A stretch of 64,000 nucleotides of DNA from Candidatus Dormiibacterota bacterium (GCA_963833055.1 CAWHWM010000004.1:135643-199642), one strand, 5' to 3'; positions 6,708-56,483 are shown, counted from the first letter of the stretch. Numbers and translations: made by a program. The notes: generated from the sequence alone by a model not told the origin.

Positions 6708-7198
6708 GCGGCCGGCGTCATCGCCTCGAGTTGATCGGCGTGTTCCTCGAGATGACCGACGAGAAAACGCTCCACCAGCTCATCCACGTCCATGACGCCG
6801 AGTGACGGATGCAGTCCCTTGCGATCCCACTGGTCCGGCTGCATGTTCGTCAGGAATCCGCGGAGCTCGGCGATGTCGGCACCGGTGTCTGCCCAGAGCG
6901 CGTCCACCGACTCTCTGCGGCTGCGCTCGATCGCGCCGATGCGCTCCGGGTCCTTCTTGGTCCGTCCGAACGGCACCGGTTCGCCCGATGACTGGCCGCG
7001 CAACACCGGCCCCGCCTGTGCGATCCAGTACGGGATGAACTCGGAGAGATGCGCCCAGACCTGGCCGCGATCCCATCGCTCACCACTCTCGGGATCCGCG
7101 CCGGTGATCTCACCCGGCACCGGCTCCCTGTTCGCCGCGGCCGCAAGCCTCGCCTCGACGGAGTCGAGACGCGCGAGATACGCGTCGCGAGTGTTCAT
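6704..7198 (-). CDS. DinB-like (DinB_2 type) helical-bundle protein
   Basis: 164 aa. The start overlaps the upstream gene's stop (ATGA at 7195-7198). The overall pattern (W..H in RWDRGQVWAHLSEF, C-terminal GHLEEHADQL) resembles the DinB/YfiT superfamily. This call rests on resemblance only. Confidence 0.45.
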   Translation of the reverse strand: MNTRDAYLARLDSVEARLAAAANREPVPGEITGADPESGERWDRGQVWAHLSEFIPYWIAQAGPVLRGQSSGEPVPFGRTKKDPERIGAIERSRRESVDALWADTGADIAELRGFLTNMQPDQWDRKGLHPSLGVMDVDELVERFLVGHLEEHADQLEAMTPAA

Positions 7199-8127
7199 CG
7201 CAGCGGCCGCAGCGGTTCGCCGGCGATCACGGTGTTGCGCAGCGTTCCGAGTCGCTCGACGCCCAGCTCAACCACATCGCCGGGCTTGAGCCACGGATAC
7301 TGATCGACGCCGTGCACGAGCGACAGCTCGAGAATGCAACCGGTGCCGCATGTGCCGGACCCGATCACATCGCCCGTGTCCACGCGTGTTGCGCGCGACG
7401 CGTACGCGAGCATCTCCTCGAAGCTCCAGTAGATGTCGGCAAGCGATGCGCGTGAGTATTCGACGCCGTTGACCGTCGCGGTCATCGCCAGGTCGTAGCT
7501 CTTGTCTCGCCGTGTGTCCTCGAGCTCATCAGGTGTCACGAACACCGGGCCGAGCGACGTTGCAAAGTCCTTGCCCTTCACCGGTCCCATGCTGAGCTTC
7601 ATCTCGCGCCGCTGGATATCGCGAGCGCTCCAGTCGTTCATCACGCAGTACCCGGCGATCGAGCGTTGCGCCTGCTCGGGATCGAGGTCGGCGCCACCCA
7701 GACCGACCACAGCCGCGACCTCGAGCTCGTAGTCCAGCTCCACAGATCCGGGCGGAATCGCGACGTCATCGTCCGGCCCGCACACTGCGTAGGGATTGCT
7801 GAAATAGAAGACGGGCAGCTCATACCAGTCGGGATCCATCTCGAGCCCGCGCCGCTGACGTGCGGTGCGCACGTGCTGCTCGAACGCGTAGAAGTCGCGC
7901 ACCGTCGGCGGGCGCGGAATCGGTGCAAGCAAACGCACAGCGTCGAGCTCCAGCACGTCACGCGGATCGTGTTGCACGGCATCGCCCTCTGCCGCAAGTC
8001 GCGTGCCGTCATCGCCGAGCAGACCGAGCAGTGTTGTCCCCGGAGCGCATGCGTGAATGCGCCCGTCGACCACCATGCCGGCACGCTCGCCCGCGTGATC
8101 CGGCACCGTGAAGGTCACCCAGCGCAT
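7195..8127 (-). CDS. fumarylacetoacetate hydrolase (FAH) family protein
   Basis: 310 aa with FAH-domain blocks: FYFSNPYAVCGPDDDVAIPPGSVELDYELEVAAVVG, IAGYCVMNDWSARDIQ, GPVKGKDFATSLGP and GDVIGSGTCGTG. Confidence 0.85.
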   Translation of the reverse strand: MRWVTFTVPDHAGERAGMVVDGRIHACAPGTTLLGLLGDDGTRLAAEGDAVQHDPRDVLELDAVRLLAPIPRPPTVRDFYAFEQHVRTARQRRGLEMDPDWYELPVFYFSNPYAVCGPDDDVAIPPGSVELDYELEVAAVVGLGGADLDPEQAQRSIAGYCVMNDWSARDIQRREMKLSMGPVKGKDFATSLGPVFVTPDELEDTRRDKSYDLAMTATVNGVEYSRASLADIYWSFEEMLAYASRATRVDTGDVIGSGTCGTGCILELSLVHGVDQYPWLKPGDVVELGVERLGTLRNTVIAGEPLRPLR

Positions 8128-45054: not shown

Positions 45055-45225
45055 ACAGACGACTCTCCTTTCGGCGGTGGACTCCCTTCAGCCTAACGGG
45101 ACGCCCTCATGCGAGGCTCGGGGTGTTGCCGGAGTGGTCAGTGCCGCAATGCACACCCTCCGATGCACGCAGTCATGGTTCCATGTGCGGCTCATCGGCA
45201 CGGATTCCCACGGAGGCGCTCACCC

Positions 45226-46179
45226 ATGCGCGGCATGTTCCCGGCCATCGAACCGCGCGAGACCGGCATGCTGGCGGTCGGCGACGGCCACGAGCTGTAC
45301 TGGGAGCGCTGCGGCAATCCCGAAGGCCTTCCTGCGGTCTTTCTGCATGGCGGACCGGGATCTGGGTGCCGTCCCAACCAGCGCCGGATCTTCGATCCGG
45401 ATCTCTACGACGCCGTGCTCTTCGACCAGCGCGGAGCGGGCCGGAGCCGGCCGCTCGCGAGCGAACCGGATGCGGACCTGAGCACCAACACCACACAGCA
45501 TCTGATCGCCGACATCGAGCAGCTCCGCGAGCACCTCGGCATTGATCGCTGGACCGTGCTCGGCATGTCCTGGGGCAGCACGCTCGGCATTGCCTACGCC
45601 GAGGCGCATCCGGACCGTGTGAAGGCGCTCGTCGTGGCGCTGGTGGGGACCACGTCGCGCCGCGAGGTGGAGTGGATGACCCAGGACGTCGGACGGATCT
45701 TTCCACGGGAGTGGGACCGTTTCGCCCGCGCCGTCCCTCCGGAGTTGCGGCATCTGCGGCTGGTCGACGCCTACGCGACCCTCCTGTTCGATCCAGATCC
45801 CGAGGTGCGCGACCACGCCGCGCGGGAGTGGTGTGCGTGGGAGAACGCGCACGTCTCGCTGGCCCCGGATGCCAGTCCCAATCCCCGCTACGAAGACCCC
45901 GAGTACCGGCTCCGGTTTGCCCGCCTGGTCACCCATTACTGGCGCAATGCCGCCTTCCTGGAGGAGGGGCAACCGCTGCGAGACGCGGCGTTGCTGAACG
46001 GAATTCCCGGCATGCTCATCTGCGGGAAGTACGACGTCAGCAGCCCGCTGGAGACCGCATGGCGGCTGTCCAATGTCTGGACGACCAGCAGGCTCGAGGT
46101 CGTCGGTGATTCCGGCCATGGCGGTGGCGATGCCTTCCTCTCGACGGTCATCGAGTCACTCATCGAGCTGGCGGGATAG
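45226..46179 (+). CDS. pip: prolyl aminopeptidase (proline iminopeptidase, alpha/beta hydrolase)
   Basis: ATG at 45226 gives MRGMFPAIEPRETGMLAVGDGHELYWERCGNPEGLPAVFLHGGPGSG.... Also present are DQRGAGRS and the nucleophile block LGMSWGSTL. The ORF as tracked starts at 45109. Confidence 0.85.
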   Translation: MRGMFPAIEPRETGMLAVGDGHELYWERCGNPEGLPAVFLHGGPGSGCRPNQRRIFDPDLYDAVLFDQRGAGRSRPLASEPDADLSTNTTQHLIADIEQLREHLGIDRWTVLGMSWGSTLGIAYAEAHPDRVKALVVALVGTTSRREVEWMTQDVGRIFPREWDRFARAVPPELRHLRLVDAYATLLFDPDPEVRDHAAREWCAWENAHVSLAPDASPNPRYEDPEYRLRFARLVTHYWRNAAFLEEGQPLRDAALLNGIPGMLICGKYDVSSPLETAWRLSNVWTTSRLEVVGDSGHGGGDAFLSTVIESLIELAG

Positions 46180-46206: not shown

Positions 46207-46235
46207 TTGCGCGGCGAACATCTGTTCGATACACT
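46207..46235 (+). promoter_or_regulatory. SOS promoter of imuA-imuB: LexA (Cheo-type) box between -35 and -10
   Basis: TTGCGC (46207-46212), a 17-nt spacer, then TACACT (46230-46235). The spacer contains the perfect palindrome CGAACATCTGTTCG (46215-46228), which matches the Gram-positive/actinobacterial LexA consensus (T)CGAAC-N4-GTTCG(A). Confidence 0.75.
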
Positions 46236-46392
46236 GGCGGTCCCGCCTCGGCGCTCCTGCTCTCCGTCCCAGTAGGCGATGGCTTTACCCCAGTGAGGAG
46301 CGATGCCCGATTCCCTGTCCGCCGCTCTGGCGACACTTCGAACCCGCTACGGTCCCCAGGCACTCCGCCGTGGCGGGTTGCCGGAGGAGGCA
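46207..46392 (+). repeat. copy A of the duplicated promoter / 5'UTR / imuA-5' segment
   Basis: It aligns by eye with 52357-52527: same -35, LexA box and -10, similar 5'UTR, identical RBS plus start (CAGTGAGGAGCGATGCCCGATTC), then CCTGTCCGCCGCTCTGGCGAC and ...CAGGCACT.CG..GT.GCGG..TGCCGG..GAGGCA. Confidence 0.8.
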
Positions 46393-47103
46393 GGCACGTG
46401 GTCCACCGCAGTGCCGGTCCTCGATGGGGTGCTCACGCCGGGTGGGTTGCCGCACGGCCGGGTCACGCTGCTTGCCGCGGCAGGTCGTGGGCCCTCGGGC
46501 CGGCTGACGCTGCTGCAGTCGCTCGTCGCGCTGGCGAGCCGTTCGCACGACACCGGCTATGTGGATCTTGCGGGCACGCTCGACCCCGGCTTTCTCGCCG
46601 ATCTCGGCGCTGACCTCGACGCCTGTCTGGTGATCTCCCCCGGCACCGAGAGGTGGGAGCGGGGGTTGGTCATGGCGCGCGCCCTGGTGGTCGCGGGCAT
46701 GCCGTGGGTGGGAGTGGCGCTGGGCGGGGAGCAATCCCGGCCGTCGCTCTGGGAGCACGCGCTTGCCGCGCTTGCCGAGGCTGTCGCCAAGCGCGGAGCG
46801 GTCTGCGTCATCGCCACGCCGGCGCCGGTGGCGGCACCGCTTCGCCACGCATCGTCGCTCACGCTCGTCTGCACGGCTGCGGGCTGGCAGCGTGCCAACG
46901 GCGATGTGGCCGGGCTGCGGGTCCGCCTCACCACCGGCAAGAGCAAGCTCGGCGCGCCCGGCGCCGAGGCCACCGTGCTGCTCCGCTACCCCCGTCCCTA
47001 TGCCACCGCCGAGGTGGTGGGGCTGCCCAGTGTCGTCGTGCCGCGGTTGCAGCCGATCTCGGTGCCGATCCCGGATGTGGCCGGCGTGGCGGCTCGAGGT
47101 TGA
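46303..47103 (+). CDS. imuA: ImuA (ImuA') - RecA/SulA-fold accessory protein of the imuA-imuB-dnaE2 mutasome
   Basis: 266 aa. It sits directly behind a LexA box and directly ahead of a Y-family-like gene. It has a degenerate RecA-like P-loop region (GRVTLLAAAGRGPSGRLTLLQSLVA) and a beta-strand core (DACLVISP...ALVVAGMPWVGVAL). Position and size are typical for ImuA/ImuA'. Confidence 0.7.
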   Translation: MPDSLSAALATLRTRYGPQALRRGGLPEEAGTWSTAVPVLDGVLTPGGLPHGRVTLLAAAGRGPSGRLTLLQSLVALASRSHDTGYVDLAGTLDPGFLADLGADLDACLVISPGTERWERGLVMARALVVAGMPWVGVALGGEQSRPSLWEHALAALAEAVAKRGAVCVIATPAPVAAPLRHASSLTLVCTAAGWQRANGDVAGLRVRLTTGKSKLGAPGAEATVLLRYPRPYATAEVVGLPSVVVPRLQPISVPIPDVAGVAARG

Positions 47104-47104
47104 G

Positions 47105-48310
47105 GTGCGCGTTCTCTGTGCTCGCCATCCGCATCTCGGGTTGCTGGCAGCCCTCCGCCGCTATCCGGAGCTGCGCGGCGAGCCGGTGATCCTGGGGGGC
47201 GCTCCCGAGCTGCGCCTCCCGGTGGTCGCCGCTTCGGCGGCGGCTCGAGCGGCCGGGGTGCGGGTGGGGCAACCGCTCCGCCAGGCGCAGCAATCCTGCC
47301 CCGCCGCAGTGTTCGTCCCGCTCGATCCCGACGGTGTCGCACGGCTGCGCGCCGCAGTCTGCGCCGAGCTCCACCGGCTCTCGCCCACGGTGGAAGCCGG
47401 CGATGAGGAGGCATTCGGCGATCTCTCCGGCCGCCACGCCGAGTTTCCCGACGAAGCCGCCTGGGCGTCCGCCCTCGCTCGCGGATTGCGCGGCGTGCTC
47501 GATGTGGAGATCGCCGTGGGCGTGGCGGGATCGCGATTCGTCGCACGTCTGGCGGCACGGTCGAGCCATCCCGGCCGCATCCGCCGGGTTCGATCCGGCG
47601 AGGAAGCCGTCTTCCTGGCGCCGCTGCCGCTCGACGTGCTGCCGGTCGATCCCGCAGTCACCGCCCGGCTCGCCGCCTTCGGGCTCGACTGTCTCGGCGC
47701 CGTGGCCGGCCTCGGTCCAGCCGATCTGCAGCGCCAGTTCGGTCCCGACGGGCTCCGGCTGTACCGGCTGGCGCGTGGCGAGGACAGCGGGGGGATCAAC
47801 CCGGTGCCGGCACAGCGGGCATGGAGCGAGCGGCTCGTGCTCGATGGCGCCACTGGGGATCTCGAGATCCTGCTTCGCGGAGTCCGGCAGTGCACCACCG
47901 CCCTCGGTGGCCGGCTCGCCGCAGAATCCCTGGCGGCGGGTGAGGTGAGCGTGGTGTTCGAGATCGAGGAGGCCGAGGCGATCTCGGTTTCGGTGGTGCC
48001 ACCGGCACCGTCGGGCAACGTGGGTGAGCTCTGGACGGCGGCGCTCGGCCTCCTCGGTGCGTTCAAGATCCAGGCACCGGTGGCAGCTGTCCGGGTCGGG
48101 GTGACCCGGCTGACCCCGGCGGCAGGCCGCCAGGCCGATCTGCTCCGTCCTGGCGACGGCGCCCACGATGCGGTGGTCGCCACGGCGGATCGCCTCCGCA
48201 GCCGCTTCGGCACGGCCACCGTGCGCCGGCCGCGGCTCGCGCTCGATCCCGGCGACCTTCCGGAGCGGCGTTTCACGTGGGAGGCGCCGGTCGTCGCTTT
48301 GACGTCGTAG
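47105..48310 (+). CDS. imuB: ImuB, Y-family DNA-polymerase-like protein (core only; C-terminal module apparently missing)
   Basis: GTG at 47105 gives (M)RVLCARHPHLGLLAALRRYPELRGEPVILGG..., the usual ImuB/DinB-like N-terminus. An alternative ATG lies at 47075. The gene follows imuA with a 2-29 nt junction. It ends ...DLPERRFTWEAPVVALTS, without the W-W...R-D-Y...terminal block I associate with ImuB C-termini. Confidence 0.75.
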   Translation: MRVLCARHPHLGLLAALRRYPELRGEPVILGGAPELRLPVVAASAAARAAGVRVGQPLRQAQQSCPAAVFVPLDPDGVARLRAAVCAELHRLSPTVEAGDEEAFGDLSGRHAEFPDEAAWASALARGLRGVLDVEIAVGVAGSRFVARLAARSSHPGRIRRVRSGEEAVFLAPLPLDVLPVDPAVTARLAAFGLDCLGAVAGLGPADLQRQFGPDGLRLYRLARGEDSGGINPVPAQRAWSERLVLDGATGDLEILLRGVRQCTTALGGRLAAESLAAGEVSVVFEIEEAEAISVSVVPPAPSGNVGELWTAALGLLGAFKIQAPVAAVRVGVTRLTPAAGRQADLLRPGDGAHDAVVATADRLRSRFGTATVRRPRLALDPGDLPERRFTWEAPVVALTS

Positions 48311-48345
48311 GCTTCGCCTCTGGTCGACACGAGAGGAGCCGTCTG

Positions 48346-51300
48346 TTGATCTGCGCCAGCTGTGGTGGGGAAAACGAACCCGGACGCCGGTTCTGCGGTG
48401 ATTGCGGCCGTCCGCTGACCCTTGCATGTCCGGCCTGTGGCGCCGCCAACTCGCCGCGGGTGCGCTTCTGCGGTGACTGTGGCGCGCCACTCGGGATTGC
48501 CACAGGTGCGGCACACGACTCTCCGGCAGAACCACCCGTCAGCGTGGCCTCGGCCGCACCGCTCACCGAGCGCCGCCACGTCTCGATCCTGTTCGCGGAC
48601 CTGGTCGGTTTCACCACCCTCGCCGAAGCTCGCGACTCAGAGGAGGTTCGCGATCTGCTCACCCGGTACTTCGGTGCCTGCCAGACGGTGATCGGACGCT
48701 ACGGCGGGGTCGTCGAGAAGTTCATCGGCGACGCGGTGATGGCGGTCTGGGGGACGCCGGTGGCGAAGGAGGACGACTCGGAACGGGCGGTCCGCGCCGC
48801 GCTCGAGATCGTCGACGCAGTGACGCAGCTCGGCATCGAGTTGGGTGCCCCGGAACTGCGTGCTCGAGCCGGAGTCCTCACCGGCGAGGCGACCGTCAAC
48901 CTCGGCGCGACCGGACAGGGGATGGTCGCGGGTGACCTCGTGAATACGGCGTCGCGCGTGCAATCCGCCGCGGCGCCGGGCACGGTCCTTGTTGGCGATG
49001 CGACCAAGCGAGCAACGGATGCGGCGATCGAGTACCGGGATACCGGCCTGCACGAGCTCAAAGGAAAGGCCGAGCCGGTGCGGCTGTGGCAGGTCGGGCG
49101 GGTGGTCGCCGGCATCGGCGGGCTGATGAAGGCGGAGGGCCTCGAGCCCCCCTTCGTCGGCCGCGACCGTGAGCTCAAGCTGGTCAAGGATGTCTTTCTC
49201 GCCAGTGCCGACGACGGCAAGGCGCACCTCGTGCAGGTGACCGGGATCGCGGGGATCGGCAAGTCCCGCCTGAGCTGGGAATTCTTCAAATACATGGACG
49301 GTCTCCAGCGGACGTTCCGCTGGCACCGCGGTCGCTGCCTCTCGTACGGCGAGGGGGTCACCTACTGGGCGCTTGCCGAGATGGTGCGTGGACGGGCGGA
49401 CATCCTCGAAGGCGAGGACCGGACGTCGGCGAGGAACAAGCTTCGCGCCGTAGTCGAGCGCACGGTCCCCGACCCTGCCGACCGCACGTTCGTCGAGCCC
49501 CGGCTTGCGCATCTCCTCGGGCTCGAGGAGCACGCCGCGTCCGACAAGTCCGACCTGTTCGCGGGCTGGCGGCTCTTCTTCGAGCGGCTCGCCGCAAGCG
49601 ACCCGGTGATCATGGTCTTCGAGGATCTGCAGTGGGCCGATCCCTCGCTGCTCGATTTCATCGAATACCTGCTGAACTGGTCGCGCGCCTTTCCGATCTT
49701 CGTCATGACGCTGGCTCGCCCCGGCGACGAAGATGAGCGCGGGATCCAAACGCAACGCCACGTCGATCTCCCTGGAACCGCTGCCGGGACGCGCGATGGA
49801 ACTGCTCCTGACCGGACTGGTTCCAGGGTTGCCCGCCGAGCTCACCGCGAAGATCCTGGAGCGAGCCGAAGGAGTGCCGCTCTACGCCGTCGAAACGGTA
49901 CGCATGCTCCTGGACCGCAACCTCCTCGTCCCGGAAGGGTCCGCATATCGCCCAACCGGCCCGATCAAGGATCTGGAAGTCCCCGAAACGCTCCACGCGC
50001 TGATCGCCGCACGGCTCGACGGTCTCTCCGCGCCCGAGCGGCGGCTGATCCAGGAGGCTTCAGTGCTCGGGAAGACCTGCACCCCGGCCGGCCTGGCGGC
50101 AGTTTCCGGCCTTGCGGAGGCACAGATCGAGCCCATCCTGGCGGCGCTCGTCGCGAAGGAGGTCCTGACCGTCCAGGCCGATCCCCGCTCCCCGGAGCGC
50201 GGCCAGTACGCGTTCCTGCAGGACCTGGTCCGAACCGTTGCGTACGAGACGCTGCCGAAGAAGGACCGCAAGGCGATGCACCTCCGTGTCGCCGAGTTCC
50301 TGCAGCGGGCGTGGGGTGTGGACGAGGCAGAGCTTGTCGAGGTGGTCGCATCGCACCTGCTCGAGGCCCACAGCCTTGCGCCGGATGCGGAGGACGCACC
50401 CCTGATCCGCGAGCTCGCCTGCGGGATGCTGATCCGGGCCGGCGAGCGCGCCGCATCGCTTGCGGCACCGGCGGAGGCTCGAGCATATTTCGAGCGCGCG
50501 GCGGAGCTGACCACGGGGCCGACCGAGCGTGCGGCGTTGCTCGAACGCGCCGGCCGCATGGCGATCCAGATGGGTCACCTGGAACAGGCCGCGACGCTCC
50601 TGACCGAGGCGAAGCGGCTCTTCGAGGAGTCCGAACAGTCGCATCCGGCCGCACGGGTCGAGGCTGGATTGGCCGAGATCCATTTCGAGCAAGGTCACCT
50701 CGACCTCGCCATCGAGTTGGCACGGCGTGCCCATGACGTGCTCGCCGGCGACGAGCCGGATGCGGCTTTCGCTCTCGTGACGGGGCAGTTCGGACGGTTC
50801 CTGGCGCTGGCGGCGGAAGACGAGGCGAGTGCGGTGATCGACAAAGCGCTCACTCTTGCGCAGCAACTCCAACTCGCAGAGGTGTACTCGCAAGCGTTGA
50901 GCAGCAAGGCGGTGGCCATCGGGCGCGAGGGGCGGCTCGATGAGGCGGTGACACTGCTCCGACGGGCACTGGAGATCGCGATCGAAGGCGAGTTCACCAG
51001 CGCAACCTTTCGCGCCTGGAACAACCTTGCCGTCTACCTCCTGTACTCGGATCGCTACACAGAGGTCGTCGAGCTGACCGAGGCGATGCTGGAGCTTGCG
51101 CGGCGACAGGGAGACCGCACGAGCGAGTTGACGGCCATGCTCGGCGTCACCACACCGCTTGTGGCGCTCGGCCGCTGGGACGAGGCCGTCCGTTACGTCG
51201 AGGAGGCACAGACAGCCGAGGAGCTCGAAGCCCTCCAATGGGCGGCGGTCCGCACCATCGAATTGGTTGCGATCCACCTCAGGCGCGGCGACATGGACGC

Positions 51301-51907
51301 CGCACGCCGGGTGTTCGACGCGGCGAAGGCGCGTGCCGATGCCCACAACACCGAGATTCGCGTCCGTGTGGGCGCGGCCGAGGTGGAACTCCTCAACGCC
51401 GAAGGCAGACCGGCTGAGGCACTCGCACTGACGGAGCAACTCCTCGAAGCAATTCCAAAGCTGGGCCTGTCCGACCTCGGCATCAAACGCCTCATCGCCC
51501 ATGGAGTTGGAGCCGCTCTCCAGCTTGGTCAGCTCGATGCCGCGGCGGCGATGCTGGCGACGGTTCGCCGGGCGAGACCCGGGATGGTGAGCCCTGAGCT
51601 CCGCGGCCACTGCGCACGGCTGGACGCCCGCCTGTCGGCGCTCCGCGGCGACAACGATGCCGTCGAGGCGGGATTCGAGACAGCGGTTGCGGCGTTCCGC
51701 GAGCTCGGCAGCCCGTTCGAGCAGGGGGTGGCTCTGTGCGAGCTCGCCGAATGGCTCGAAGGGCAGGGCCGTTCGGCCGAGGCCGCGGCCGTCGCGCTCG
51801 AGGCGCGCACATTGTTCGAACGACTCGGTGCGCGCCCATGGCTGGAACGAGTCCGACCGCTGCTCGCGGCGGACTCGTCATTCCCAGTTGCCACGGCGTC
51901 CAGCTGA
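48346..51907 (+). pseudogene. double-zinc-ribbon / class III adenylate-guanylate cyclase / AAA(STAND-like) ATPase / TPR multidomain protein, one frameshift as sequenced
   Basis: TTG at 48346 lies behind the RBS GAGAGGAG (48331-48338). Domains in order are a double zinc ribbon (CASCGGENEPGRRFCGDCG...CPACGAANSPRVRFCGDCG), a cyclase core (RRHVSILFADLVGFT...EKFIGDAVMAVWG), a P-loop (VTGIAGIGKSRL), and a long helical/TPR-like C-terminus ending LFERLGARPWLERV. ORFs 48277-50736 and 49733-51907 join if one G of GGG at 49741-49743 is removed (ERGSKRNATSISLEPL). Confidence 0.8.
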
Positions 51908-51962
51908 GCGCGCACGACTGAACCGCCGGCACTCATCGCCCGGCACTCACGGAGGAGAGGAC

Positions 51963-52340
51963 ATGCCCAGAGACTGTGTGAACACCACCGCGGCTCCGAT
52001 CTCGCCCGCGTACAGCCAGGCTGTGAAGGCTGCCGGGCTGGTCTTCGTCTCAGGCCAGGCCGGGATCGATCCCGCCACCGGTCACCTTGCCGGCGCCACC
52101 ATCCAGGAGCAGACACGCCAGTGTCTGCGGAACGTGGCTGCGATTCTGGAGGCCGCCGGCAGCTCGCTCGACAAGATCGTCAGCGCCACCTTCATCCTTC
52201 GGCATCCCGAGGACTTTGCGGGGATGAACGAGGAGTGGCAGGCGTGGTTCCCGGTGGATCCCCCGGCCAGGCAGGGCGCCCAGCTTCCCATTGACGTGGA
52301 AGGGCTCCGGGTCTCGATCGCGGTCATCGCAGCCGAGTGA
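51963..52340 (+). CDS. RidA/YjgF/UK114 family protein
   Basis: ATG at 51963 lies behind GGAGGAGAGG. 125 aa with AAPISPAYSQAVKAAGLVFVSGQAGIDPATG and PARQGAQLPIDVEGLRVSIAVIA, typical of the family. Confidence 0.8.
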   Translation: MPRDCVNTTAAPISPAYSQAVKAAGLVFVSGQAGIDPATGHLAGATIQEQTRQCLRNVAAILEAAGSSLDKIVSATFILRHPEDFAGMNEEWQAWFPVDPPARQGAQLPIDVEGLRVSIAVIAAE

Positions 52341-52356
52341 TGCCGGGCCGCGGCGG

Positions 52357-52385
52357 TTGCGATTCGAACATCTGTTCGGTACACT
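52357..52385 (+). promoter_or_regulatory. second SOS promoter (copy B): LexA box between -35 and -10, upstream of the small ORFs and dnaE2
   Basis: TTGCGA (52357-52362), a 17-nt spacer, then TACACT (52380-52385). The spacer contains CGAACATCTGTTCG (52365-52378), identical to the box at 46215-46228. Confidence 0.75.
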
Positions 52386-52527
52386 GACCTCCCGCCGCAG
52401 CGCTCCCGCTCTTCCGTCCCAGGAGACGGCGGTCCTTCATCAGTGAGGAGCGATGCCCGATTCTCCTGTCCGCCGCTCTGGCGACTGTCCTCAGGCACTT
52501 CGGTGTAGCGGCCTGCCGGCAGAGGCA
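52357..52527 (+). repeat. copy B of the duplicated promoter / 5'UTR / imuA-5' segment
   Basis: See copy A. Relative to A it has scattered substitutions, a 2-nt insertion (TC after ATGCCCGATTC) and a gap of roughly 16 nt. Confidence 0.8.
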
Positions 52528-52536
52528 ACTCGATGA
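52453..52536 (+). CDS. 27-codon upstream ORF, relic of the imuA 5' end, coupled to the next ORF
   Basis: It has the same RBS and start as imuA. It encodes MPDSPVRRSGDCPQALRCSGLPAEATR; compare ImuA MPDS...GPQALRRGGLPEEAG. Its TGA overlaps the ATG of the 82-aa ORF (ATGA at 52533-52536). Confidence 0.35.
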   Translation: MPDSPVRRSGDCPQALRCSGLPAEATR

Positions 52537-52781
52537 CCGAGCTGCTCGACGGCGTCATCGAAGTTCGCATCGGTACTGACGGACGGCCGGTTGCGATCCG
52601 GACCGGGTCGGTGTGGGGACGGGTGGCCGAGGTGGTGAACACCTGGCGCGTGGAGACCGACTGGTGGCGGATCCCGGTGGGTCGCGACTACGTGCGGTGT
52701 CTCCTCAATGACGGCGAGTGCATCGATCTCTACAGGGATCTCGGGACCGGCGAGTGGCATCGGGAGCGCCGCTATGACTGA
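52533..52781 (+). CDS. stand-alone 82-aa protein resembling the C-terminal module of ImuB
   Basis: Third-position G/C bias is typical of the genome. The sequence ...EVRIGTDGRPVAIRTGSVWGRVAEVVNTWRVETDWWRIPVGRDYVRCLLNDGECIDLYRDLGTGEWHRERRYD follows the pattern I recall for ImuB C-termini (..ERIE.GWW.....RDY........G....W.YR.......W.LHG.F). It is located between a LexA-box promoter and dnaE2. Confidence 0.55.
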   Translation: MTELLDGVIEVRIGTDGRPVAIRTGSVWGRVAEVVNTWRVETDWWRIPVGRDYVRCLLNDGECIDLYRDLGTGEWHRERRYD

Positions 52782-52913: not shown

Positions 52914-55900
52914 ATGCCCGGATTTGCCGAACTCGCCGCCCGTTCCCACTATTCCTTTCTGGAAGGAGCTTCCTCGCCCAAAGCGATGGTCCAGATCGCC
53001 GCGCGTCTCGGGATCTCGGCGCTCGGTCTCTGCGACCGCAACGGGCTGTATGGAGCGGTCGAGCTGATCCAGTCCGCGAAGGCTGCGGGCATCCACCCGA
53101 TCATCGGCACGGAGCTCGAGCTCGCAGGCGGTTCACGAATCCGTCTGCTGGCCCGTAGCAGGACTGGATACCGCCAGCTCTGCCGGGCCGTGAGCGCTTC
53201 GCAGCTCGCCGGCGTGAAAGGTCAGCCGCGCCTGGAGATCAACGGGATCTCGCTGGGCGGACGCGCGAGTGCGATCGTCTCCCGCTCGCGGCGGCCAACG
53301 CTGCCGCCACCGGAACGTCCTGCAGCGCTGCGGCCGACGGCGGGACCGTTTCCGGAGGGGTGGCCGGGATTGCCGTCGACAACGTTGCTTGTCGAGAGCG
53401 AGCCGGCGCGTGTCGATCCGGTTGCGCTTGATGACTGCATCGCACTGATCGGCGGGCCGCGCAGTGCTGTTGTCGATGTGCTGGTCCACGGTGATCGACG
53501 CGAGGCGCTGCGTCATGCGCAACTGGTGCGGGAGTGCTTCGGACGCGAGCGCACGGCGATGCTGGTGAGCAATCACCTGCATCCCGCAGATCGCTGGCTG
53601 GTTGCGGAATGCGCGGCGATTGCGCAGGCAGCGGACATCCCGCTCGTGGCGAGCGCAACGCCGGACCATGCCACGGCAGACGACAAACCGCTGCTCGATG
53701 TGCTGACGGCAATCCGTCATCGCACGACTCTCGACCAGGCTGCGGCGCACGGCCTGCTCCTGCCCAACAGCGAGCACCGGCTCCATGGTGAGGCGGAGCT
53801 TCGTGCGTTGCTTCCCGGCCTCCCTGAGGCGTTCGACAACGCGGCGCGCATCGCCGCCGCGTGTGAGGTGTCACTCGACTTCAGCGACGTGCGCTTTCCG
53901 GGTTTCCCCGTGCCGGCGGGGGAGACGCCGTTCTCCGTGCTCTACGGACTCTGTCAGGAGGCCGTGCAGCGCAAGTACCACCCCATGACTCGCGCTGTCG
54001 CCGCGCGCCTGCAGCGCGAGCTCGATGTCATCGAGAAGACGCATCTCGCCGAGTTCTTCCTGATCACCTGGGACATCATGAAGTTCGCCCGTGAGCACGG
54101 CATCCCAGGACAGGGACGCGGCAGCGCGGCGGACTCGATCGTCGCCTACCTGCTCGGCATCACGCGTGTCGATCCCGTCGCGCACGACCTGCTCTTCGAG
54201 CGTTTTCTCCACGAAGACCACCAGGGCACGCCCGATATCGACATCGATTTCTCCACCGACCACCGCGAGCAGGTGCTCCAGTACGTCTATGAGAAGTACG
54301 GCCCCGATCGCACCGGGATGGTGGCCAACGTCGTGACCTTCCGGCCCCGCATGGCGATCCGCCAGGTGGGCGCCGCCATGGGCTTTCCGGAAACCGTGGT
54401 CGACAAGCTCAGCACGCACACCGACAGCTGGTACCTCGCCGATATGGAGACAGTGCTGACATCGAGTGGTACACGCACCACGAGGCCGGGTGACGTCGCG
54501 GGGGGGCGCCGGCCCGGCGTGTTCACGGAAGCTGGGACGGAGGGGCCCCCGCGGCGGCAGGACCCGGCCGTCGATGTGTCAAACCACGCGTGGCAGCAAT
54601 TCGTCGAAGTCCTTCGCCGCATCGAGGGGACGCCTCGACATCTGAGCATTCATGTCGGCGGGATGCTCGTGACGGGGGAACCGCTCGTCGATGTTGTGCC
54701 GGTGGAGCGCGCGACGATGCCGGGGCGAGTCGTCGTGCAATTCGACAAGGACGACGTGGAGGATCTCGGGCTCATCAAGATGGATCTGCTCGGGCTGCGC
54801 ACGCTGTCGGCGGTGGCGGAGTGCCTCGACCTCATCGAGCAGACCACCGGACAGCGACCCGACCTCGACACGTTGCCGCTCGACGACCAGCGTGTGTTCG
54901 ACGTGATCTGCAAGGTGGACACCATCGGGCTCTTCCAGATCGAATCGCGCGCGCAGCAGCAATCGCTCTGGCAGTCACAGCCGCGCTGTTTCAACGATCT
55001 GATCGTGCAGGTGGCGATCATCCGTCCCGGTCCGATCCAGGGCGACGCGGTCCATCCGTATCTCCGCCGCCGTCAGGGGCTCGAGCCGGTGACCTACCTG
55101 CATCCCAAGTTGGAGCCGATCCTGGCAGAAACATGCGGCGTCGTCCTGTACCAGGAGCAGATCCTGCGCATCGTCATGGAGCTCGCCGCATACACCGCCG
55201 GTGAAGCGGATCGATTCCGGCGGGCGATGAGCCGGCACCGTTCGCGGGTGGAGATGGAGGAGCTGCGAGACGGCTTCATCCGGCGCTGCATCGAGCACGA
55301 CGTCACTGAGGAGGTGGCGCAACAGATCTTCAAGAGCGTCGCCGGTTTTGCGGAGTTCGGGTTCTGCAAATCGCACGCCGCGGCGTTCGCGCGCACCGCG
55401 TATGAGACGGCGTGGCTGCGCATGACCTATCCCGCGCACTACACGTGCGCGCTGCTCAACGCGCAGCCGATGGGTTTCTACCATCCGTCGGTGCTCGTCG
55501 ATGACGCCAAGCGGCACGGCGTCAAGGTCCTGCCGGTCGACGTCACCAGGAGCCGTGCACGCTGCCTGGTGGAGGCGACCGGCGCGGCCGGCTTCGGGAT
55601 ACGGCTCGGATTCGCATACGTGCGCGGGCTGGGACCCACGGCACGCGCAGCGTGCGACGACGCGGTGGTCGCCGGAGCGAACACATCGGTGGCCGCGTTC
55701 TGGCGGCACACGCTCCTGCCCCGGGTGGCGATGGAGAACCTCATCCGTGTGGGCGCCTTCGACGCCGTCGCCGGCGGGCAGTCGCGCCGCCAGCTGCTCT
55801 GGACCCTGAAGGAGACCGAGGAGTCACTGCCGCCGCGAAAACGACGCAGGGCAACCATCGCGCCGGCCGAGCAGACGGTGATCGCTGCCGCCGTGGTGAC

Positions 55901-56483
55901 CGGTCCACCACGGGGCAGTGGTGCGGTTGCCGGCAACCGGCTTGGCGATGCGCCGCATACCCCGCACGATCCGAGCAGCGATCCGGCGCCACCGCTCGTA
56001 TCGCTGCCGGCGCCGCCGCCGATCCTGCCCGAGATGGACGAGCGCACCCGCGTGAACACCGAGTACGCGATCACCGAGGTGAGCACCGGGCCTCACCTGG
56101 TCTCATTCATGCGCGAGCGGCTCAACGCACTCGGCTGCGTCCCACTCGCGAAGGTGCGCGACATGGTGGACGGCACGCGGATCCGCGTCGCTGGGTTGGT
56201 GATCACACGCCAGCAGCCGTCGACAGCCCGAGGATTCCGGTTCTTCACCCTCGCGGACGAGGACGCCAACCTCGACCTGGTGTTCCGCCCAGCGGTGGTG
56301 CAGCGGACCCTCGAGGTGGCGCGGCATCCGCTGCTCATGGTCGACGGCAGGCTGCAGGTCGAGCTGGGCAGGGTCAACGTGGTCGTTGAGCGGGTGACCG
56401 CGCTCACGCCGGACGGCGACCCGATCGACCGCCCGGGACCGGTCCCCGAGAGCGGATTCCGCGGATCGCACGACTACCGCTGA
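52914..56483 (+). CDS. dnaE2: error-prone DNA polymerase III alpha-subunit paralog DnaE2
   Basis: 1189 aa. The PHP-domain N-terminus is MPGFAELAARSHYSFLEGASSPKAMV..LGISALGLCDRNGLYG. Pol III alpha core blocks are present (FFLITWDIMKFAREHGIPGQGRGSAADSIVAYLLGIT, PDIDIDF, KMDLLGLRTLS, FQIESRAQ, IIRPGP, YQEQ). It lacks the tau/epsilon-interacting C-terminal extension of DnaE1. It sits in an SOS-boxed imuA-imuB context. Confidence 0.9.
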   Translation: MPGFAELAARSHYSFLEGASSPKAMVQIAARLGISALGLCDRNGLYGAVELIQSAKAAGIHPIIGTELELAGGSRIRLLARSRTGYRQLCRAVSASQLAGVKGQPRLEINGISLGGRASAIVSRSRRPTLPPPERPAALRPTAGPFPEGWPGLPSTTLLVESEPARVDPVALDDCIALIGGPRSAVVDVLVHGDRREALRHAQLVRECFGRERTAMLVSNHLHPADRWLVAECAAIAQAADIPLVASATPDHATADDKPLLDVLTAIRHRTTLDQAAAHGLLLPNSEHRLHGEAELRALLPGLPEAFDNAARIAAACEVSLDFSDVRFPGFPVPAGETPFSVLYGLCQEAVQRKYHPMTRAVAARLQRELDVIEKTHLAEFFLITWDIMKFAREHGIPGQGRGSAADSIVAYLLGITRVDPVAHDLLFERFLHEDHQGTPDIDIDFSTDHREQVLQYVYEKYGPDRTGMVANVVTFRPRMAIRQVGAAMGFPETVVDKLSTHTDSWYLADMETVLTSSGTRTTRPGDVAGGRRPGVFTEAGTEGPPRRQDPAVDVSNHAWQQFVEVLRRIEGTPRHLSIHVGGMLVTGEPLVDVVPVERATMPGRVVVQFDKDDVEDLGLIKMDLLGLRTLSAVAECLDLIEQTTGQRPDLDTLPLDDQRVFDVICKVDTIGLFQIESRAQQQSLWQSQPRCFNDLIVQVAIIRPGPIQGDAVHPYLRRRQGLEPVTYLHPKLEPILAETCGVVLYQEQILRIVMELAAYTAGEADRFRRAMSRHRSRVEMEELRDGFIRRCIEHDVTEEVAQQIFKSVAGFAEFGFCKSHAAAFARTAYETAWLRMTYPAHYTCALLNAQPMGFYHPSVLVDDAKRHGVKVLPVDVTRSRARCLVEATGAAGFGIRLGFAYVRGLGPTARAACDDAVVAGANTSVAAFWRHTLLPRVAMENLIRVGAFDAVAGGQSRRQLLWTLKETEESLPPRKRRRATIAPAEQTVIAAAVVTGPPRGSGAVAGNRLGDAPHTPHDPSSDPAPPLVSLPAPPPILPEMDERTRVNTEYAITEVSTGPHLVSFMRERLNALGCVPLAKVRDMVDGTRIRVAGLVITRQQPSTARGFRFFTLADEDANLDLVFRPAVVQRTLEVARHPLLMVDGRLQVELGRVNVVVERVTALTPDGDPIDRPGPVPESGFRGSHDYR

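Follow-up and report, generated by a model that had tools for sequence, protein, structure and literature searches.

A stand-alone ImuB C-terminal domain and a divided putative DnaE2 mutasome operon in Dormibacterota

We analyzed a putative DnaE2 mutasome locus in a 64-kilobase (kb) stretch of a Candidatus Dormiibacterota genome (GCA_963833055.1 CAWHWM010000004.1:135643-199642), hereafter the window, whose 64,000 nucleotides (nt) are numbered from the first. An original prediction, made from the sequence alone, held that imuB is split here between an open reading frame (ORF) for a Y-family polymerase-like core and an ORF of 82 amino acids (aa) that lies 4.2 kb downstream, directly before dnaE2, and bears the ImuB C-terminal signature; its coordinates and sequence statements were checked and all agree with the window. 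The best overall explanation, which we hold to be likely, is that the small ORF encodes the ImuB C-terminal domain (ImuB-C) as a separate subunit of a four-protein, SOS-regulated mutasome composed of an ImuA-like dead RecA paralog, an inactive Y-family core, ImuB-C, and DnaE2.

The small ORF and the Y-family core

That the 82-aa ORF is a stand-alone ImuB-C is, in our judgment, nearly certain. An exhaustive profile search of 1.8 billion proteins returned 1009 representative homologs at E<=1e-3, mostly small proteins; several proteins of 393-576 aa among the matches align solely at their extreme C terminus, and these carry IMS/IMS_C domains (P0106, residues 503-575; P0147, 409-482; P0155, 401-476; P0203, 410-484; E from 8e-13 to 1e-9). 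By BLASTP, the small ORF is 35% identical to residues 504-575 of one such fused protein (P0106/L096; E=6e-16). Read in succession, the core and the small ORF are collinear with the fused proteins, from a clamp-like RQ..L through a helix-strand motif, PERR, and a linker to the ImuB-C motifs. The alignment shows W.(V/I)E.DWW, R.Y.R, L(F/Y)RD, and G.W to be common to the small ORF and the fused C termini, and the small-ORF Trp corresponds to the W in the G.W(Y/F) motif of the fused proteins. The C-terminal signature attributed to this ORF is thus borne out.

The 84 close homologs range from 52 to 135 aa, most being 82 or 101 aa long, and an alignment of 25 sequences contains 24 invariant positions, with W75, R46, R51, R55, R79, and R80 unchanged throughout. 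The ratio of nonsynonymous to synonymous substitution rates (dN/dS) against relatives is 0.09-0.24. Homologs, invariant residues, and dN/dS together argue that the small ORF is a real gene under selection. AlphaFold2 predicts seven strands and no helices (predicted local distance difference test score, 88.3), and a Foldseek comparison of this model with the PDB gave no fold match (best E=0.41); all-beta and with no PDB relative, the prediction agrees with an earlier account of ImuB-C, which describes a beta-barrel with a novel fold (PMC12926913).

The features of the locus are as follows.

46207-46236, + strand: promoter P1, ahead of the imuA-like gene; a TTGCGC hexamer and TACACT flank its LexA-type box CGAACATCTGTTCG (46215-46228)

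46303-47103, + strand: imuA-like gene, encoding a 266-aa RecA paralog with a degenerate Walker A motif (Pfam RecA, NCBIfam ImuA, phmmer)

47105-48310, + strand: ImuB core (ImuY-like), a 401-aa Y-family protein predicted to be inactive (Pfam IMS and IMS_C; no ImuB-C domain)

48296-48345, + strand: left junction of the rearrangement, with the last imuB codons (ALTS*) and the cyclase leader, probably the only traces of a duplicated imuB-C 5' fragment; relatives depart from canonical loci here

48346-51907, + strand: passenger gene with zinc-ribbon, adenylate/guanylate cyclase, AAA_16, and TPR domains (STAND-type; Pfam), frameshifted

51957-52340, + strand: passenger gene for a 127-aa protein of the RidA/YjgF family (Pfam Ribonuc_L-PSP, 2.5e-26; TIGR00004, 2.4e-27, below cutoff)

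52357-52386, + strand: promoter P2, a direct-repeat duplicate of P1 with an identical LexA-type box (52365-52378)

52453-52536, + strand: leader ORF of 27 codons in which a relic of imuA (codons 1 to ~28) runs into the final bases of imuB; the stop overlaps the imuB-C start (ATGA)

52533-52781, + strand: imuB-C, the 82-aa stand-alone ImuB C-terminal domain protein (profile search, BLASTP, alignment, AlphaFold2)

52914-56483, + strand: dnaE2, encoding an error-prone C-family polymerase of 1189 aa (NCBIfam NF004225, 994.5 bits against a cutoff of 939; PHP, DNA_pol3_alpha, finger, and HHH_6 domains)

An alpha/beta-hydrolase gene occupies 45109-46179, and Rfam and tRNA scans of the region gave no match.

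The core ORF had been thought to end early. It probably starts at the GTG at 47105, one base past the imuA-like stop, a spacing shared by relatives, and it stops at 48310 with the terminus ...PERRFTWEAPVVALTS*; however, relatives measure 401-403 aa, so for its lineage the 401-aa product is of full length. The N-terminal DxD catalytic motif is replaced by VLCARHPHLGL (CARHPH), a substitution conserved in all nine aligned Dormibacterota sequences, and the core is predicted to be catalytically inactive. A clamp-like motif, QADLL, occupies aa 343-347, and GRQADL(L/W)R is conserved where a clamp motif is expected (compare 352-QLPLW-356 of M. smegmatis; PMC11791113). It is followed by a RecA-NT-like helix-strand at aa 354-378 (HDAVVATADRLRSRFGTATVRRPRL, also given as ADRLRSRFGTATVRR) and by a PERRF tail at aa 386-390, after which the protein ends within 11 residues. 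M. smegmatis ImuB runs from the clamp motif (352-356) through RecA-NT (360-387) and a linker to ImuB-C (422-525) (PMC11791113). Since the clamp-like and RecA-NT-like motifs are retained on the core, the break falls in the linker and detaches only ImuB-C. The proposal that the split parts the core from its interaction module therefore holds for ImuB-C but not for the RecA-NT-like motif, which remains part of the core; mycobacterial ImuB depends on RecA-NT for its critical contact with ImuA', and ImuB-C serves only to stabilize that contact (PMC11791113). The core resembles DinB-like polymerases, matching NCBIfam Pol IV models down to E=6e-37, and a tblastn search of plasmids with it found DinB only and no named ImuB.

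The imuA-like protein matches Pfam RecA (5e-8) and, by phmmer, RecA structures (~1e-9), and it retains the RecA N-terminal helix; on the NCBIfam ImuA model it reaches 3.7e-4 and 20 bits, against a cutoff of 150. Its sequence resembles RecA more than the ImuA model. Its Walker A GKT has become GRL (a K-to-R change), as in 13 of 13 aligned Dormibacterota sequences. The gene may be an ImuA that has diverged, or else a RecA duplicate of separate origin in the same role.

A scan of one genome per species returned 80 loci, onto which the window proteins were mapped; these are labeled mostly Dormibacterota (Dormibacteraeota/Dormibacteria) or Chloroflexota, with a few other labels of metagenome-assembled genomes (MAGs). 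The canonical four-gene operon imuA-like / core / imuB-C / dnaE2, which contigs with homologs of the small protein show as well, usually with an ATGA stop/start overlap, is present in 68 loci; ten loci are of the window's type, described below, and two lack an upstream flank. The survey of one-piece versus two-piece imuB proposed with the original prediction thus returned two pieces, with the Y-family gene and imuB-C as separate genes, in 78 of 80 species genomes with enough flank: the split is real, but it is not particular to this genome. The imuA-like gene lies upstream in 75 loci and dnaE2 downstream in 73. In all Dormibacterota loci examined, even those whose cores reach 460-487 aa, ImuB-C has an ORF of its own. 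Dormibacterota Y-family proteins of 466-487 aa were considered as candidate fused ImuBs and rejected, their tails being low-complexity linkers and ImuB-C being separate in those genomes. A lineage-wide four-gene operon can be taken as all but settled, and the ancestral Dormibacterota layout is a single operon, imuA-like / core / imuB-C / dnaE2, in which the imuB-C start overlaps the core stop.

Known mutasomes and the origin of the split

Stand-alone ImuB-C and a "split ImuB" are established concepts, and the headline claim of an arrangement not yet described falls away in light of earlier work (PMC3765255, PMC6511836, PMC8072749, PMC12926913). Domains of the ImuB-C superfamily also occur solo beside DinB, UmuC, or DnaE2 (Aravind, Anand & Iyer 2013, PMC3765255). 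Operons comprising an inactive PolY, a stand-alone ImuB-C, and DnaE2 have been described, with imuA absent from both operons and genomes (PMC6511836); Deinococcus carries imuY-imuB-C-dnaE2, of which ImuY and DnaE2 are needed for ultraviolet mutagenesis (PMC8072749); and a 2026 survey refers to iPolY plus ImuB-C, in genomes without imuA, as "a split ImuB" (the DnaE2X module) and proposes it as a precursor of ImuA-ImuB-DnaE2 (PMC12926913). Published systems of the DnaE2X type have been proposed to use RecA in place of ImuA.

At the domain level, the window family does not differ from the ImuB-C superfamily: both have about 80 residues, a predicted all-beta fold, and a conserved C-terminal Trp with basic residues, and occur fused or solo. 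The window family is a Dormibacterota branch with a lineage-specific invariant N terminus (MTELL) and C terminus (RRYD). The 68 canonical loci share with ImuY/iPolY cassettes the order of a Y-family gene, here predicted to be inactive, ~80-aa stand-alone ImuB-C, and dnaE2; further resemblances are a RecA-NT-like motif on the Y-family protein and a putative LexA-type operator. In a metagenomic cassette of this type, lexA-Y-imuB-C-dnaE2 (L095), the Y-family protein is 29% identical to the window core over its full length and ImuB-C is 37% identical to its window counterpart. Unlike ImuY/iPolY cassettes, which have no imuA, the Dormibacterota operon starts with a dead RecA paralog (75 of 80 loci); it also lacks lexA and, in the window's subclade, is additionally divided into two transcription units. 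With the canonical ImuA(ImuA')-ImuB-DnaE2 mutasome of Mycobacterium, Caulobacter, and Pseudomonas, it has in common ImuB-C, DnaE2, and, as predicted from sequence, an inactive RecA-like accessory, a catalytically dead Y-family scaffold on which a clamp-like motif precedes a RecA-NT-like one, and SOS control. There, however, ImuB-C is fused to ImuB, whereas in Dormibacterota it is a separate polypeptide and the core is DinB-like instead of ImuB1/ImuB2-like. Mycobacteria also possess a split cassette, imuA'-imuB / dnaE2 (PMC6511836), in which ImuB-C stays on ImuB, while here it goes with dnaE2. None of the 11 module types of the 2026 survey combines a dead RecA paralog with a split ImuB; Dormibacterota were outside its reach because it was restricted to complete genomes (PMC12926913). 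A search of one literature library found no paper linking Dormibacter* with DnaE2, and the occurrence of an ImuA-like gene together with a split ImuB looks undescribed.

The two genes might descend from a fused ImuA-ImuB-DnaE2 system that underwent secondary fission in the Dormibacterota ancestor, for instance through a stop or frameshift in the linker, as opposed to an ImuY/ImuB-C-type system that carried or acquired a RecA paralog. Secondary fission would fit the presence of an ImuA-like gene, as in canonical cassettes, and a break that falls exactly in the linker between PERR and ImuB-C, and the ATGA overlap could come from a small mutation in a fused gene. We nevertheless find it possible but doubtful, as the ImuA-like protein lies nearer to RecA than to the ImuA model and the DinB-like core, with its Pol IV matches, is typical of "iPolY/ImuY" and not of the very divergent ImuB1/ImuB2 (PMC6511836). 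Moreover, the two non-Dormibacterota relatives examined, both metagenomic, sit in lexA-headed cassettes, lexA-Y(396 aa)-ImuB-C(84 aa)-dnaE2 and lexA-fused(576 aa)-dnaE2, neither of which has imuA.

The evidence on the DnaE2 group of the window polymerase is its match to NF004225 (error-prone polymerase) above cutoff only. At 1189 aa, it is longer than the DnaE2 proteins of the two non-Dormibacterota cassettes (1043-1059 aa), and BLASTP alignments with these stop after residue ~107 and restart at ~179-218, which points to an insert after the PHP N terminus. Residues ~985-1050 form a Pro/Ala-rich stretch, as judged by eye only. In related assemblies, dnaE2 is called in at least two pieces (L003:10422-14406, L012:6424-10183, L009:10449-14071), probably reflecting frameshift errors or pseudogenes of those MAGs.

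Division of the operon in the window's subclade

In the window and 11 related sequences (L010, L016, L017, L019, L022, L026, L030, L037, L040, L045, and L048), hereafter fission-type, passenger genes lie between imuB and imuB-C. The window contains a direct repeat (46207-46353 and 52357-52504, 78-87% identity) that spans the LexA-type box, the ribosome-binding site (RBS), and the imuA 5' end. Its downstream copy, altered by a 1-nt insertion and by the loss of 16 nt, is then joined to the last bases of imuB (...TCGATGACC), so that the stop of ORF 52453-52536 overlaps the ATG of 52533-52781 (TCGATGACC). The 27-codon imuA relic recognized in the original prediction is therefore confirmed by the repeat. 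The relic junction and the 16-nt deletion recur identically in other assemblies, with the same junction in L010 and L019.

The passengers vary in content. The cyclase/STAND gene and RidA are both present in the window, L017, L022, and L026; six sequences (L010, L019, L030, L040, L045, and L048) carry the cyclase only, although L010 keeps a RidA tail of ~45 nt, and the alignment of L019 breaks there as well; L016 has RidA only, and L037 a truncated cyclase. In L040 (138-245), ~105 nt of a decayed, frameshifted second imuB-C 5' end follow imuB directly, before the cyclase; this fragment is probably a leftover of the duplication behind the fission arrangement, and the ALTS* terminus of the window imuB probably a remnant of the duplicated imuB-C 5' junction. 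In the canonical close relatives L015 (1-3222) and L025 (227-3725), the cyclase/STAND gene (window 48304-51912) lies 2-3 kb upstream of imuA. L015 has the alpha/beta-hydrolase gene between cyclase and imuA, the two blocks being swapped relative to the window. The cyclase gene is a single ORF of ~1198 aa in five relatives (L017, L019, L026, L045, and L048); in the window, an extra nucleotide near 49733-49737 (GAAGATGAGCGCG, where relatives have GAAGCCG-GCGCG; 49726-49740) breaks it into two overlapping frames, reflecting either a pseudogene or a base-calling error.

We favor, with fair confidence and as the simplest reading, an origin of this arrangement by duplication and reciprocal loss, as judged from the promoter/imuA 5' repeat, the shared relic junction, the imuB-C fragment of L040, and the position of the cyclase upstream of imuA in L015 and L025. 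A segment that starts at the promoter, includes imuA and imuB, and ends ~100 nt into imuB-C would have been duplicated across the cyclase/STAND-RidA block. The upstream copy would then have kept imuA-imuB and lost its imuB-C fragment, while the downstream copy, after internal deletion of imuA-imuB, would have been left with imuB-C-dnaE2 behind the LexA-box promoter and the vestige of an imuA start. Such an operon fission with the box retained looks undescribed.

The relic had also been proposed to supply the RBS and start for the small ORF, a role that is not conserved: the leader ORF is intact in only five of the 12 fission-type loci and is disrupted or deleted in most others. Some copies are of full length and share the junction and the 16-nt deletion; others have shrunk to 12-13 codons, are disrupted, or are gone. 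One might still see in it a selected device for imuB-C translation by termination-reinitiation, given that an ATG-initiated leader of 12-27 codons ends exactly in an xTGA overlap in the window, L010, L019, L037, and L040, that the overlap holds despite different indels, including an in-frame 3-nt deletion, and that a strong RBS (GAGGAG) precedes the relic ATG. Yet the ORF is disrupted in L016 and L030, reduced to six codons in L045, and not detected in L048 (where the region contains Ns); it is deleted in L017, L022, and L026, which instead have a GAGGAG Shine-Dalgarno sequence 7-9 nt before the imuB-C start; and the relic peptides diverge freely in sequence. We consider such a device unlikely. 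In L017, L022, and L026, where the relic is wholly gone, the imuB-C start comes just 44-45 nt after the LexA box, and ~1 kb of extra sequence (~6980-7950) with no counterpart in the window separates RidA from the second promoter. The MTELL pentapeptide (window 52533-52547) and a C-terminal RR(Y)D are invariant across the 25 aligned sequences, and MTELL is unchanged in the ten fission-type loci translated, where the overlap with imuB is gone, with two starting with GTG; it may be a docking element in place of the covalent linker.

Two further explanations are already refuted. The small ORF could belong to an unrelated small-protein family encoded beside dnaE2 and resemble ImuB-C by coincidence, as the original prediction had itself allowed: Pfam and NCBIfam scans matched no model, even at E<=10 on 25 family members, a PDB sequence search and the fold comparison found no match, and tblastn against plasmids gave non-significant matches only (E 0.3-0.9; two of four overlap a gene annotated as Y-family polymerase). 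The profile matches to C termini of IMS proteins, the pairwise BLASTP alignment, and the collinear motifs establish homology to ImuB-C and leave this reading a negligible chance, and a missing Pfam model and PDB relative have likewise been reported for ImuB-C itself (PMC6511836, PMC12926913). That the 4.2-kb separation or the short imuB reflects an assembly chimera or sequencing error is just as improbable: the cyclase gene does hold at least one probable 1-nt error or pseudogenizing indel and the related data are all metagenome-assembled, but the same arrangement is shared by 11 further assemblies that come from separate projects (palsa, MFD, SPRUCE, JGI contigs), whose graded deletion variants and 80-88% nucleotide identity mark them as independent sequences, and a short core with a separate small ORF is found in 78 of the 80 surveyed species genomes.

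Promoters, proposed mechanism, and meaning

Each of the two units is preceded by the exact box, a CGAAC-N4-GTTCG palindrome found nowhere else in the 64 kb and conserved in relatives. Upstream of imuB-C, the LexA-type box and its flanking hexamers are present in all 12 fission-type loci (exact in ten, with one mismatch in L037 and in L048), and the box is kept while the relic decays. A sigma-70 consensus scan called neither P1 nor P2, and we infer the P1 hexamer assignment. No terminator was found by a scan between imuB and imuB-C, so that the cyclase gene may be read through from the first promoter.

In the proposed mechanism, LexA cleavage would derepress both promoters. By analogy with mycobacterial data and published models, the core would bind the beta clamp via QADLL and ImuA via the RecA-NT-like motif, and ImuB-C, made with DnaE2, would bind the DnaE2 PHP domain and dock in trans onto the core/ImuA complex. 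We lean toward LexA control of both units combined with docking in trans.

Several points weigh against this account of the mutasome and its divided operon. LexA binding is proposed solely from a Gram-positive-type box, and all protein-protein contacts in this lineage are transferred from other systems. The predicted inactivity of the core comes from motif inspection, and an acidic GDEE stretch remains. In neighbor-joining trees of core and DnaE2 (loci L003-L051), fission-type loci are not monophyletic but form about four groups interleaved with canonical loci, so a single origin needs recombination between strains unless the trees are unreliable; given the unique shared relic junction, the scatter suggests recombination among related populations or unreliable trees.

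We tentatively suggest, while thinking it somewhat less probable than its converse, that Dormibacterota hold an uncatalogued fourth DnaE2 mutasome architecture, comprising a dead RecA paralog, an ImuY-like core, a stand-alone ImuB-C, and DnaE2. It would be the predicted intermediate between DnaE2X-iPolY-ImuB-C-RecA and the fused ImuA-ImuB-DnaE2, ImuA having joined before the Y-family protein and ImuB-C were fused, and the fission subclade would be a natural genetic dissection showing ImuB-C as a DnaE2-associated subunit in trans. Published split systems are described as lacking ImuA; this lineage is an exception, and it bears on how the widespread ImuA-ImuB-DnaE2 mutasome was assembled and on whether ImuA or the fusion came first. 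Where the operon broke, ImuB-C stayed with dnaE2, and the core bearing the RecA-NT-like and clamp motifs stayed with imuA, a partition in line with structural models that assign the chief contact with DnaE2 (PHP) to ImuB-C and that with ImuA to RecA-NT; the segregation of imuB-C with dnaE2 is consistent with that division of contacts. If it arose as we propose, the locus offers a clean case of operon division by duplication and reciprocal loss, with the operator retained and the intermediates visible in related genomes.

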